A stretch of DNA of 64,000 bases, taken from NCBI RefSeq assembly GCF_002854065.1, contig NZ_CP024147.1; one strand, given 5' to 3'. Both the position numbers and the translations under genes were made by a program. This document shows, one piece after another, positions 45,834 through 57,381 of the stretch. How positions within the stretch are numbered: position 1 is the first letter of the stretch; each line of letters starts with the position of its first letter. The notes beneath the pieces are model-generated. The model made no database searches. It was not told the DNA's origin and saw only the letters and a program-made list of their open reading frames with translations. This DNA comes from Escherichia coli. Lineage in GTDB: Bacteria; Pseudomonadota; Gammaproteobacteria; Enterobacterales; Enterobacteriaceae.

Positions 45834-47402
45834 ATGAGTAATAATAACGATATCGTACAAAAACTGTGGAACCTGTGTGATGTACTGCGTGATGACGGCA
45901 TCAACTACAGCGATTACGTCACCGAACTAGTGCTACTACTGTTTATCAAAATGGTGCATGAAAATACCGAAGCAGAATTATTAGATCAGCACACTTTACC
46001 GCAGGGCTGCCGCTGGAGCGATCTCAACAGTTTATCGGGCCTCAACTTGCTTAACCATTACAAACAAATGCTGTTGAAGCTCTCCAGCGGCAAAGACGCT
46101 GAAGGTAATTCGGTTCATGCTGACCCGCTGATTAGCGCCATTTATGACGATGCGCAGACCCGCCTGCGTGAGCCTCGTCATCTCGAACAGATGATCCGCA
46201 CCCTCGACCAAATTGACTGGTTTAGTGCTAAAAAAGACGGTCTCGGTGATCTTTATGAAGGTCTGCTGGAGAAAAACGCCGGAGAAACAAAATCTGGCGC
46301 AGGTCAATATTTTACGCCGCGGGCCTTAATTAACAGCATGGTACGCTGCATTAAGCCACAGGCTGGAGAAGTGATCCAAGATCCCGCTGCGGGCACCGCA
46401 GGGTTTTTGATTGCCGCCGATCAATACATCAAGCAACAAACTGACAACCTCTACGACCTTACTGCCAAAGCGAGAACCTTTCAAAAAAATAAAGCCTTTA
46501 TTGGTGTGGAACTGGTTCCGTCTACGCGCCGCCTGGCACTGATGAACTGCCTGCTACACGGCATCGAAGGGGATGACGAAGGCGTCGTGCATCAGGGCAA
46601 CGCGTTGGGCATGGTGGGTGCTAGCTTGCCCAAGGCCGATATCATTCTTGCTAACCCGCCGTTCGGTACGGCGAAAGGCGGTGAAGCCAGCATTACTCGT
46701 GATGACTTAACCTACCCAACTAGTAACAAACAGCTAGCGTTTTTACAGCATATCTACCGTAACTTAAAACCGGGTGGCCGTGCAGCTGTGGTGCTACCCG
46801 ACAACGTCCTGTTTGAAGCGGGTGTTGGCACCGATGTACGCCGCGACCTTATGAACAAATGTAACCTGCACACCATTTTACGTTTACCCACCGGGATTTT
46901 TTACGCCCAAGGGGTGAAAACCAACGTTTTGTTCTTCACCAAAGGCAGCGCCAACAACAAACATCAGGATGAAAATTGTACCGAAAACGTCTGGATCTAT
47001 GATCTGCGTAGTAACATGCCAAGCTTTGGCAAACGCACCCCGTTTGGTGAGCAACATTTAAAACCCTTTGAAGCGGTTTACGGCGACGATGCCAACGGTC
47101 AAAGCCCACGCAGTGAAGGGGAATGGAGTTTTAACTCCGACAAACTTGACGTGCCCGATAACGCCGAAAATCAGCACGTTGACAACCGCATGGCGACCAG
47201 CCGTTGGCGCACATTCAGCCGTGAATGGATCCGCGATGTTAAAGGTGATTCATTAGATATTGCATGGCTGAAAGATAACAACAGCGTTGATGTGACTAAC
47301 CTGCCTGAACCTAGTGTATTAGCGATTGAAGCAAAAGAAGAATTAACCACTGCTTTAGCAGAACTGGATGCTTTATTGACTTTATTAGGAGCAACTCGCT
47401 GA
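45834..47402 (+). CDS. hsdM: Type I restriction-modification N6-adenine DNA methyltransferase subunit
   Basis: N-terminal HsdM_N-like sequence (DIVQKLWNLCDVLRDDG), motif I DPAAGTAGFL, catalytic NPPF; start at the ATG with AGGA RBS. Confidence 0.9.
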   Translation: MSNNNDIVQKLWNLCDVLRDDGINYSDYVTELVLLLFIKMVHENTEAELLDQHTLPQGCRWSDLNSLSGLNLLNHYKQMLLKLSSGKDAEGNSVHADPLISAIYDDAQTRLREPRHLEQMIRTLDQIDWFSAKKDGLGDLYEGLLEKNAGETKSGAGQYFTPRALINSMVRCIKPQAGEVIQDPAAGTAGFLIAADQYIKQQTDNLYDLTAKARTFQKNKAFIGVELVPSTRRLALMNCLLHGIEGDDEGVVHQGNALGMVGASLPKADIILANPPFGTAKGGEASITRDDLTYPTSNKQLAFLQHIYRNLKPGGRAAVVLPDNVLFEAGVGTDVRRDLMNKCNLHTILRLPTGIFYAQGVKTNVLFFTKGSANNKHQDENCTENVWIYDLRSNMPSFGKRTPFGEQHLKPFEAVYGDDANGQSPRSEGEWSFNSDKLDVPDNAENQHVDNRMATSRWRTFSREWIRDVKGDSLDIAWLKDNNSVDVTNLPEPSVLAIEAKEELTTALAELDALLTLLGATR

Positions 47403-48778
47403 TGAGTAAGATTATTCTACCTGAAGGGTGGTCCAATTGTACTCTTGCAGATATTGCTGAAGTTAACCCTAAAAAAATAGAGGCTGAACCTGACATAATT
47501 GCAGGCTTTGTTCCTATGTCTCATGCCCCAACAAACTATTACGGGAAATTAGAGTTTGAAGAAAAGACTTGGGGTGAAATTGGTAAATCTTACACTAACT
47601 TTAAAAATGATGATGTGATTTTTGCAAAAGTAACGCCTTGTTTTGAAAATGGTAAAGCAGCAATTGTAAAAGATATGCCAAATAATATCGGTGCAGGCAG
47701 CTCTGAATTTTATGTTCTACGCGCTCGTAATCAAGAGATACCAGCCAGTTATTTACTTGGGATTATTAAGACCAGAAAATTTATGCAGGAAGGTGCAGAA
47801 AATATGACAGGTGCTGTTGGTCTGCGCCGTGTTCCAAGGGCTTTCGTTGAAAGCTTTCCTTTGATACTTCCCCCTCTTGCAGAACATAAAATCATCGCCG
47901 ATAAACTCGATATTCTGTTAGCACAGGTCGAAAGCGCCAAAGCACGCCTTGAGCAAATACCACAAATCCTGAAGCGTTTTCGTCAAGCGGTGTTGGCATC
48001 TGCGGTGAGTGGAAAATTAATACCAAAGGATCAAAAGTCCAATGTACGATTTGATGTCTCAGTTGGTTCACTTTGTATAACTTCGTTTGATGGCCCTTTT
48101 GGGTCAAAATTAAAAACGGCTGATTATACAAATGCGGGTGTTCGTGTCGCTCGACTAGAAAATATTGGTCATTTAACATTTAATGATGAAAAAGAAACGT
48201 ATATCAGCGATACAAAATTTAATAGCCTAAAAGGAAATAAGCTCGAAAAGGATGATGTGTTATTCTCATCATTTGTAGATGAAGATGTTCGTGTATGTCT
48301 TTTTCCACATAACGATAAAATTTTTATAAACAAGGCAGATTGTTTTTGTTTAAGGATCAATCAAGAAATAGCATCACCAAAATATGTAGCTTTAACATTA
48401 GCAAGCAGAACTTCGTATGAACAAATTAAAGCACAGGTTCAAGGTGTAACACGACCTCGTATTAATTTAAAGACGTTAAGGTCTTTGTCGTTTACGTTTC
48501 CTTCTCTACAAGAACAAAACGAAATTGTTCGCCGCGTAGAACAACTCTTCGCCTATGCTGATGGCATCGAAAAGCAGGTACACAACGCCCTTGAGTGCGT
48601 CAACAACCTCACACAGTCGATTCTGGCTAAAGCATTTCGTGGGGAACTCACGGCGCAATGGCGTGCAGAAAATCCCGATTTAATTAGTGGTGAAAATAGC
48701 GCACAAGCATTACTGGTGAAAATTCAACAGCAGCGCAAAAACATAAAAAATATCAAACGCAACAAGGGTAATAATTGA
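47402..48778 (+). CDS. hsdS: Type I restriction-modification specificity subunit
   Basis: 458-aa ORF, start overlaps the hsdM stop (TGATG); two target-recognition-domain halves separated by conserved helical spacers. Confidence 0.85.
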   Translation: MSKIILPEGWSNCTLADIAEVNPKKIEAEPDIIAGFVPMSHAPTNYYGKLEFEEKTWGEIGKSYTNFKNDDVIFAKVTPCFENGKAAIVKDMPNNIGAGSSEFYVLRARNQEIPASYLLGIIKTRKFMQEGAENMTGAVGLRRVPRAFVESFPLILPPLAEHKIIADKLDILLAQVESAKARLEQIPQILKRFRQAVLASAVSGKLIPKDQKSNVRFDVSVGSLCITSFDGPFGSKLKTADYTNAGVRVARLENIGHLTFNDEKETYISDTKFNSLKGNKLEKDDVLFSSFVDEDVRVCLFPHNDKIFINKADCFCLRINQEIASPKYVALTLASRTSYEQIKAQVQGVTRPRINLKTLRSLSFTFPSLQEQNEIVRRVEQLFAYADGIEKQVHNALECVNNLTQSILAKAFRGELTAQWRAENPDLISGENSAQALLVKIQQQRKNIKNIKRNKGNN

Positions 48779-56987: not shown

Positions 56988-57381
56988 TCAGGATTGTGCG
57001 GTGTAATAGACCAAAGCCAGCTTGTTGCCATCGGGGTCTCTAACATAAGCGCTGTAGAAACCTTCGCCGTAATGCGGGCGCAGGCCAGGTGCTCCCTCGT
57101 CCGTGCCTCCTTGGTTTAAAGCGAGCGCGTGAAGCTGCTGGATATGTTCGGCAGTGCGGGCAATCAGGGCGACCATCACACCATTTCCGGTTGTGGCATC
57201 CTGTTTATCAAAAGGTATGCCGATACCCAGTGCCGTCGTGTTATTACCGTTGAAAACGCCCAGCTACGCGACGTCCTCATTCCTGCCACAATGGGTATAG
57301 CTCTGCATCTCCATGAACGGATAGTCGAATGTGAGGGCATGTGGCTGGTAGTTTGTTTTAAGCATAATGTAAGAAAACATG
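56988..57381 (-). pseudogene. Glyoxalase/VOC-family gene remnant (frameshift plus in-frame TAG), paralogue of the intact gene at 60022-60414
   Basis: Minus-strand translation begins MFSYIML then hits TAA; shifting one frame gives KTNYQPHALTFDYPFMEMQSYTHCGRNEDVA then TAG, then reads on to ...EHIQQLHALALNQGGTDEGAPG...; collinear with the intact paralogue (MFSYVMLGTNDLPRAIRFYDPLMELLGYPKAGRNEEGASW...). Confidence 0.7.

Follow-up and report, generated by a model that had tools for sequence, protein, structure and literature searches.

The reading we propose for the AT-rich tract found in this 64,000-nucleotide stretch of Escherichia coli DNA (assembly GCF_002854065.1, contig NZ_CP024147.1; the window, in what follows) combines two elements, and we hold it to be probable as a whole: the tract forms the distal portion of a defence island acquired by horizontal transfer at the tRNA gene leuX, and its composition results from a conserved offset between the proximal and the distal genes of one operon. 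The tract belongs to two modules: a five-gene unit, with its last three genes AT-rich, in which a type I restriction-modification (R-M) system is followed by a Septu-like pair of ATPase and HNH nuclease genes, and a convergent EcBPAN system, composed of a prokaryotic Argonaute (pAgo) and its nuclease bAgaN, that has almost certainly been inactivated by the element IS2. The fall in GC content at the hsdM/hsdS junction is a gene-specific offset which tracks the host; it is not the scar of an insertion, and it designates no particular donor. The first module contains the following genes:

42230-45754, plus strand: hsdR (Pfam ResIII and EcoEI_R_C; PADLOC REase_I, 2e-269; NCBIfam NF008521, 1616 bits); GC 50.0%, GC at third codon positions (GC3) 53.3%
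45798-47402, plus strand: hsdM (Pfam N6_Mtase, 1.7e-77); GC 48.7%
47402-48778, plus strand: hsdS (Pfam Methylase_S; PADLOC Specificity_I, 2e-151)
48778-50481, plus strand: PtuA-like ATPase of the ABC/AAA_21 type (Pfam AAA_21 and AAA_15; PADLOC PtuA, 5e-44, and PDC-M62A)
50481-51647, plus strand: PtuB-like HNH nuclease of 388 amino acids with extra helical domains

HsdR, HsdM and HsdS are encoded together and all three have Pfam, PADLOC or NCBIfam matches, as in a type I R-M system. The ATPase also scores 170 bits with NCBIfam TIGR04435, under the 300-bit cutoff of that model, and matches PtuA in the PDB (8ee4) at 8e-6; the HNH protein gave no sequence match in Pfam, NCBIfam or PDB. From hsdM onwards, each stop codon overlaps the following start codon by one nucleotide, in the TGATG motifs of hsdM/hsdS (47400-47404) and hsdS/ATPase (48776-48780) and in the TAATG motif of ATPase/HNH (50479-50483). 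These overlaps indicate that the four genes hsdM, hsdS, ATPase and HNH are translationally coupled, and thus that the 10-point drop in GC content occurs inside one operon.

The composition of these genes was compared with a baseline of 32 open reading frames (ORFs) of the true core (GC 50.6±4.9%, GC3 53.8±9.3%, codon adaptation index (CAI) 0.432±0.092), the reference set for the CAI being 29 ribosomal-protein and elongation-factor genes of K-12. The hsdS gene (GC 38.6%, GC3 28.8%, CAI 0.313), the ATPase gene (38.8%, 32.7% and 0.274) and the HNH gene (38.9%, 29.6% and 0.256) are true outliers: their z-scores for GC are about -2.4 to -2.5, their GC3 is under that of 31-32 of the 32 core ORFs, and their Karlin codon-bias distance to the core is 0.49-0.60 against 0.33±0.09, the CAI of the ATPase and HNH genes being under that of every core ORF (32/32). 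The CAI amounts to 0.377 for hsdR, 0.421 for hsdM, 0.60 for nrdD and 0.69 for valS, and over the integrase gene, hsdR and hsdM taken together (about 6.8 kb, GC 49.3%), GC, GC3 and CAI are all host-like. The original prediction had described the hsdS, ATPase, HNH, nuclease and pAgo genes as markedly AT-rich in comparison with core genes such as valS or nrdD. This description fits the first three; the bAgaN nuclease gene is intermediate (GC 41.9%, z=-1.8, CAI 0.293), and the word "markedly" does not suit pAgo (GC 45.5-46%, GC3 about 47%, z about -1, CAI 0.328), 6 of the 32 core ORFs being lower in GC. The abundance of AAA, AAT and ATT codons that it had noticed by eye is confirmed by counting, with 10.9-13.9 of them per 100 codons in hsdS/ATPase/HNH versus 5.7-9.8 in typical core genes.

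The interval 47402-56990, over which the shift had been announced, is a real low-GC tract. Its GC content is 43.1%, lower than the minimum reached by any 9589-bp interval left of leuX (44.6%) and different from the 50.2% found elsewhere in the window (chi-square 165, p=1e-37); the GC and CAI check proposed for 47.4-57 kb, once run, did not give back the core value of about 50-51%. The atypical part is nevertheless narrower than announced and heterogeneous, and it holds IS2 with its 53.5% GC. An unsupervised Jensen-Shannon segmentation on the base composition of the window delimits the following segments:

34061-47235: GC 49.0%
47236-52073: GC 38.7%
52074-56755: GC 47.1%
56756-64000: GC 50.9%

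The atypical composition is confined to 47.2-56.7 kb, the rest of the island being host-like, and the last 90-170 bp or so of hsdM belong to the AT-rich variable part (segmentation boundary at 47236, break of the Phytobacter homology at 47312). Two ORFs of the core are more AT-rich than any gene of the island, namely a yjgL-like pseudogene and yjgN (19394-21170 and 23284-24695): the former, a frameshifted "DNA-binding protein", has a GC content of 32.5-34% and a CAI of 0.28, the latter a GC content of 36-37% and a CAI of 0.28. Island and core are not separable by AT-richness alone in this window.

In hsdS, ATPase and HNH, the deficit is mainly synonymous: GC3 is down by 0.21-0.25, the first codon positions (GC1) by about 0.09 (0.50-0.51 against about 0.60 in the core) and the second (GC2) by about 0.04 (0.32-0.375 against about 0.40). 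Could the low GC be the simple consequence of protein composition, DNA-binding and ATPase proteins being rich in Lys, Asn and Ile? GC1 and GC2 are indeed somewhat under those of the core genes, but the largest deficit is the one at third positions (GC3 0.29-0.33 against 0.54), and both the codon-bias distances given above and CAI values that are the lowest of the window make such an origin very improbable.

The step is also present in the relatives of this operon. Thirteen loci could be measured, in hosts of roughly 36-59% GC as approximated from short flanks. The GC content of hsdR+hsdM exceeds that of ATPase+HNH in all 13, by 7.6 points on average (range 2.3-12.6, Wilcoxon p=0.0001), and hsdS lies under hsdR+hsdM in 12 of them. 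The distal genes ATPase and HNH track the GC content of hsdR/M (r=0.70, slope 0.54): in Acinetobacter, hsdR/M are at 39% and ATPase/HNH at 32-33%, and on a contig of about 59% GC the corresponding values are 58-60% and 44-49%. In EcoKI, the GC content goes from 54.8% in hsdM and 54.6% in hsdR to 40.4% in hsdS, with a CAI that falls from 0.56 to 0.32 at the hsdM/hsdS boundary. The step is located inside a coupled operon and recurs in the related loci and in EcoKI; it therefore does not mark the place where foreign DNA meets native DNA.

The gene order itself is conserved. When species-representative genomes were scanned with the ATPase, 11 loci were obtained, 10 of them with flanking context, and these 10 all display the order hsdR-hsdM-hsdS-ATPase-HNH in Phytobacter, Buttiauxella, an Enterobacteriaceae isolate, two Vibrio, Marinomonas, Shewanella, two Acinetobacter and Pseudohongiella. 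With four additional loci (L017, L018, L019 and L020 in our numbering), the linkage of the five genes is observed in 14 of 14 loci, distributed over several orders of Gammaproteobacteria. In Alteromonas and in a metagenomic contig, both carrying distant HNH homologs, hsdR and hsdM are separated by an additional Fic gene, and the HNH copy of Methylomonas is a decayed remnant adjoining an hsdR fragment.

The offset would then be a steady state and not the fading signature of a donor, as the mainly synonymous nature of the deficit, the lowest CAI of the window and the faster evolution of the AT-rich genes together suggest. Amino-acid identities among relatives range from 30 to 85% for HNH and from 39 to 92% for the ATPase, against 67-98% for hsdR and 69-96% for hsdM. 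Defence genes that have a low CAI, diverge quickly and are often exchanged would undergo AT-biased mutation with little counter-selection, and hsdS would additionally have been rebuilt by swaps of its target-recognition domains.

A recent import from a low-GC donor, inserted between native core genes and keeping its un-ameliorated, H-NS-silenced signature, is the explanation closest to what had first been supposed, and we regard it as unlikely. In its favour are the atypical composition of the block, the rarity of the island to which it belongs, an AT content within the range of H-NS and a diversity of the HNH family that is greatest in marine Gammaproteobacteria of lower GC (Vibrio, Shewanella, Marinobacter, Alteromonas). 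Against it, however, stand the recurrence of the step, inside a coupled operon, in hosts of 36-59% GC and in EcoKI, the accessory nature of both flanks, which largely refutes the part of the proposal that concerns the flanking core, and the lack of any homolog above 58% identity among those found outside Enterobacterales. The substitution record speaks in the same sense. Between the four enterobacterial copies (E. coli, Phytobacter, Buttiauxella and Klebsiella), the ATPase and HNH proteins differ by 8-25%, and GC3 is 0.305-0.316 in all of them; over the enterobacterial clade, the two proteins have diverged by 4-25% while their genes stayed at 38-39% GC. When third-position singletons of these four copies are polarised by parsimony on the terminal branches, 102 AT>GC against 75 GC>AT changes are counted for ATPase+HNH (p=0.05), 30 against 29 for bAgaN, and 20 against 77 for hsdR+hsdM (p=5e-9), so that no net AT>GC flux appears beyond what parsimony produces as an artefact. 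With the biases of this test allowed for, we see no evidence that the AT-rich genes are climbing towards the GC content of the host; if anything, it is the GC-normal hsdR and hsdM that would be drifting downward.

This strong GC>AT flux in hsdR/M, as if the two genes had been displaced from a higher-GC equilibrium, also fits a different history, in which an AT-rich hsdS-ATPase-HNH cassette was recombined onto a GC-normal hsdR-hsdM pair in an enterobacterial ancestor, the step then being the scar left where the two histories meet. Recombination has demonstrably occurred in hsdS, where both target-recognition domains are swapped relative to its relatives, with breakpoints at 47312, 48016-48020 and 48511; the only conserved regions of the gene common to loci L003 and L004 are 47882-48016 and the 3' part from 48511. 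The nucleotide identity with Phytobacter is 95% over hsdR/M, 88% from the ATPase gene to the 3' part of pAgo and 94% in the 5' part of pAgo, hence 95% versus 88% on the two sides of hsdS, and the HNH proteins are less conserved (75-85%) than the ATPases (90-92%) between the same genomes. We nevertheless find an ancestral graft doubtful, since all 14 loci, from several orders, keep the five genes collinear, the offset exists in each locus, low-GC Acinetobacter included, a single graft cannot give an offset that tracks the host (r=0.70), and it would leave unexplained why the step also exists in EcoKI, an unrelated locus devoid of the ATPase-HNH pair.

Several points weigh against the conserved-offset reading that we prefer. 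The 13 loci are phylogenetically related, so that the Wilcoxon p value overstates their independence, and the short flanks from which the host GC was estimated could belong to islands too. In the polarisation test, recent AT-biased mutations are over-represented among singletons, and parsimony tends to count too many AT>GC changes where diverged sequence is AT-rich. Judging from the uneven identity with Phytobacter, some real mosaicism contributes to the pattern. As to the cause of the offset, we infer it from indices among which the CAI is itself correlated with GC3. Finally, promoter-like sites, counted as a proxy for the spurious promoters on which H-NS would act, 9 of which out of 21 are located inside the 4.2-kb AT-rich block, are not more numerous than in dinucleotide-preserving shuffles (21 against 24.5±4.4).

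The acquisition of the island by horizontal transfer, also part of the original prediction, is strongly upheld by evidence other than composition: the presence of leuX and of an integrase, the rarity of the cargo and an asymmetry of single-nucleotide polymorphisms (SNPs) across leuX. The left end of the island is formed by two features:

40360-40444, plus strand: leuX, tRNA-Leu(CAA) (ARAGORN; a tRNA-Leu is also annotated in strains VTB96935v and CUWW06), left boundary and integration site of the island
40607-41899, plus strand: P4-type, intB-like tyrosine integrase (Pfam Arm-DNA-bind_3, Phage_int_M and Phage_integrase); GC 50.6%

In a survey of 5,426 complete E. coli genomes, hsdR/M, hsdS-ATPase-HNH and nuclease-pAgo are each found in a single one, that of strain VTB96935v. 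From leuX to the end of the window (about 22 kb), the two sequences differ by 7 SNPs (0.03%), whereas 34 of their 40 mismatches are concentrated in the 1.2 kb situated left of leuX (2.9% divergence); this difference across leuX indicates that the same element resides in two divergent chromosomal backgrounds. Only 6 of the 5,426 genomes cover at least 80% of the right flank (56.8-64 kb), and in another strain this flank is part of a CP4-like island located at a different site. The idea of an AT-rich cargo set against a flanking core is thus mistaken, both the integrase, hsdR and hsdM on the left and 56.8-64 kb on the right being accessory island DNA. The borders of homology agree with a construction in modules: the similarity to Buttiauxella extends from leuX through the HNH gene and ends at 51625, that to Phytobacter extends from hsdR through pAgo and ends at 56682, and that to other E. 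coli strains resumes at about 56770, next to the GC boundary at 56755. No direct repeat of the 3' end of leuX (16-24 nucleotides, at most one mismatch) was detected within the window, the end of the island lying beyond it; in VTB96935v, the island continues for about 16 kb after the point corresponding to the window end, as far as nanS/nanM/nanC-fimB, about 40 kb from leuX. We also considered transport by a plasmid or a phage, which is unsupported: the AT-rich cargo is not carried as a unit in plasmid and phage collections, where we encountered only fragments of the conserved regions of hsdS and one bAgaN-like gene of a Shewanella plasmid (69%).

The second module faces the first one and comprises, from the junction of the two:

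51666-51683: hairpin followed by a T-run, found in a scan for terminator-like structures; it separates the convergent genes HNH and bAgaN and includes the stop codon of the latter
51676-52848, minus strand: bAgaN, PD-(D/E)XK nuclease effector of the DpnII-MboI type (Pfam REase_DpnII-MboI, 2.8e-43; PADLOC Aga_Helical-REase, 4e-132)
52836-53180, minus strand: 3' fragment of a long-B pAgo, C-terminus of PIWI (PADLOC pAgo_II, model positions 608-724)
53181-54511, plus strand: IS2 (IS3 family), 1331 bp, GC 53.5%, with orfA/orfB at 53227-54500 and imperfect terminal repeats
54512-56403, minus strand: 5' part of the long-B pAgo (EcAgo), residues 1 to about 631 (PADLOC pAgo_II, 5e-231); GC 45.7%
56404-56755: AT-rich region upstream of pAgo, GC 40%; on the right, the pAgo module ends at about 56680-56770

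From its structure and position, the hairpin at 51666-51683 is probably a bidirectional terminator at the junction of the two cargo modules. The IS2 element, whose matches in K-12 bear the annotation "IS3-like element IS2 family transposase", is flanked by a 5-bp target duplication, CGTCC (53176-53180 and 54512-54516), and is absent at exactly that site, as judged from the blastn junctions, in VTB96935v (L001), the single further E. coli genome that carries the island. It entered pAgo after about codon 631, in the PIWI domain, antiparallel to the gene and upstream of bAgaN. An intact pAgo of 743 amino acids is encoded in L001, L003 and L020, and the fragments of the window are collinear with the L001 gene. 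The intact sister protein scores 1684 bits over residues 13-743 with "EcAgo" (PDB 23wq), the N-terminal sequence of pAgo is identical to that of EcAgo WP_205742363, and the N-terminus of bAgaN is that of EcbAgaN of Song et al. 2023 except for one residue. With its Argonaute gene split in this way, the BPAN system of the window is almost certainly non-functional. A separate event is visible in Klebsiella aerogenes (L019, 11196-13284), where a different IS3-family element truncated bAgaN to 291 amino acids and removed pAgo. BPAN would thus seem to have been inactivated repeatedly, at least twice independently by insertion elements, a recurrence consistent with a fitness cost of an abortive-infection system. 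We also considered whether IS2 was attracted by H-NS, and rejected the idea: such "transposon capture" has been shown only for IS5-family elements (PMC11335895), and the insertion is in the least AT-rich gene of the cargo.

The hsdS-ATPase-HNH block, on the other hand, has the features that could attract H-NS: it is 61% AT over 4.8 kb, 28.5% of its 100-bp intervals reach at least 65% AT against about 1% in the core, and TpA steps occur at 72/kb against 42/kb. In E. coli, H-NS silences intragenic transcription in a gene with 56% AT (PMC8894471). Binding of H-NS to this block is plausible on these grounds, and pAgo, with 54% AT, would be a weak candidate. The likely silencing of the whole region that was initially put forward we consider unlikely, because the expression of hsdS is needed for methylation as well as for restriction; at 61% AT, H-NS could dampen intragenic transcription and toxic effectors, and it would at most attenuate the distal genes and spurious transcripts, with no full silencing of hsdS if the R-M system is active. 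The literature yielded nothing usable on H-NS occupancy or expression for the island, hsdS or mcrBC.

Some features of the neighbourhood and of the related loci complete this description. The right part of the island in the window is the following:

56756-64000: continuation of the island with host-like GC, containing a VOC pseudogene, a Zn-ribbon protein, yjhP, topAI/YjhX, GNAT, VOC, an MdtM-like MFS protein, DUF1349, GNAT and VOC

The VOC-family gene at 56988-57380 (minus strand) has an internal stop and is a pseudogene by collinearity with the annotation of VTB96935v. The 584-bp stretch between it and the start of pAgo includes an AT-rich part (40% GC), a probable promoter region, and also a GC-rich hairpin at 56957-56976. 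In VTB96935v, the extension of the island carries an ATP-dependent nuclease and a helicase (Gabija-like), DUF6650, YagK/YfjJ, a GTPase and DUF932, together with an antirestriction protein, RadC, YeeU/CbtA, another restriction endonuclease and HNH fragments. Left of leuX, the core gene order is mpl, nrdDG, treBC, mgtA, pyrBI, argF/I, valS, pepA, lptFG, yjgR, idnRTODK and ahr, and the valS-yjgR block is 100% identical to that of many strains. The L-idonate operon idnRTODK (34055-39144), present here and in CUWW06, is absent in VTB96935v, where yjgR abuts ahr; idnK has 43% GC, and the operon constitutes a presence/absence polymorphism directly left of leuX.

Among the loci related to the first module, the Fic-domain gene between hsdR and hsdM occupies 2905-4062 in L017 and 3200-4279 in L018, and one or two extra ORFs are intercalated between hsdS and the ATPase gene in L006 (8487-9685), L007 (8993-9793), L008 (9008-9802) and L009 (9192-9938); their "VYVDESGDH" motif is one that we take to be reminiscent of DUF3800. 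The locus L005, a 1394-bp contig from a metagenome-assembled genome labelled "Bacillota bacterium", encodes an ATPase 95% identical to the E. coli protein at 38% GC; very probably, this contig is of enterobacterial origin and was mis-binned, and it does not attest a transfer to Firmicutes.

AT-rich accessory DNA at tRNA islands is textbook knowledge for E. coli, and the compositional shift by itself is routine. The cargo is likewise of known kinds: a member of the type I R-M family, a dead copy of an already characterised BPAN and a divergent Septu-like pair. What our observations emphasize is a counter-example to the delimitation of islands by GC content, which here misses about 40% of the cargo shown and puts the "boundary" in the middle of an operon. 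A persistent AT offset in some defence genes, for which the recurrent step and the lack of amelioration among the enterobacterial copies argue, also bears on amelioration clocks and on the inference of donors, and the characterised EcBPAN now receives a natural context, in a leuX island and adjoining a type I R-M/Septu-like operon.

With the known islands at tRNA-leuX (intB/KpLE2 of K-12 and those of other strains), the present one shares the tRNA target and, at the same position, an integrase of the intB type. This slot holds intB and IS2 in K-12, and IS1, an ATP-dependent helicase and a large DEAD/DEAH helicase in CUWW06, whose core is identical; on this comparison of gene contents, leuX is a hotspot exchanging defence-type cargo. 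The island differs from the others in its combination of cargo, encountered in one of the 5,426 genomes, with near-identical modules in Phytobacter, Buttiauxella and Klebsiella. Its second module is essentially EcBPAN of E. coli CAP29 (Song et al. 2023, Nat Commun, PMC10620215), with the same proteins and the same order, pAgo first and overlapping the downstream PD-(D/E)XK nuclease. In that system, 5'-P guide RNAs recognise target DNA, which is followed by collateral DNA degradation by bAgaN and by abortive infection (PMC10620215). A BPAN is defined by a catalytically inactive long pAgo and an adjoining PD-(D/E)XK nuclease; both are found here, but the pAgo frame is not intact.

EcoKI, the type IA system of K-12, has the same hsdR-hsdM-hsdS order and similar subunit lengths as the R-M part of the first module, with identities of 40% for HsdR, 59% for HsdM and 47% for the conserved parts of HsdS; it lies elsewhere on the chromosome, in the immigration control region, and no ATPase-HNH pair follows it. 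Septu, which is also the effector pair of the type I-A retrons Ec78/Eco7 and Ec83, associates a PtuA-type ABC ATPase with an adjoining PtuB-type HNH nuclease, the arrangement that we observe. The ATPase however scores 44 bits with the NCBIfam PtuA model against a cutoff of 500 bits, the HNH protein has no TIGR02646 match and 388 amino acids instead of the 210-234 or so of PtuB, and the pair is seen only directly downstream of type I hsd genes, here coupled to hsdS. For the pair as a unit, the best PADLOC labels are the untested candidates PDC-M62 and PDC-M01. It is a divergent Septu-like variant by its architecture and fold, and not a member of Septu, since it fails the thresholds of the curated sequence families.

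The attachment of this pair to an R-M locus echoes TIGR04435, the embedded candidates of PADLOC and the precedent of PrrC/EcoprrI. Guilt-by-embedding (bioRxiv 10.1101/2024.01.29.577857) concerns defence genes of this sort, lodged inside R-M loci or attached to them, and according to reviews PrrC is activated when a phage inhibits the R-M enzyme. By analogy, and given the strict linkage in 14 of 14 loci and the stop/start coupling, one may tentatively imagine that hsdR-hsdM-hsdS-ATPase-HNH constitutes one functional system, in which the ATPase and the HNH protein would act as a PrrC-like guard or as a second effector of the R-M system. If so, the pair would fire once the R-M complex is disabled by anti-restriction proteins of a phage (Ocr or Stp, for example), and the conserved AT-rich composition of the distal genes would itself be functional, a toxic effector being kept at a low, H-NS-dampened expression. 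As in PrrC/EcoprrI and in TIGR04435, the family of the "restriction system-associated AAA family ATPase", an ABC-type ATPase effector is tied here to a type I R-M locus; PrrC, however, is a single-protein anticodon nuclease encoded between hsd genes, whereas the present operon places a two-protein ATPase and HNH pair after hsdS.

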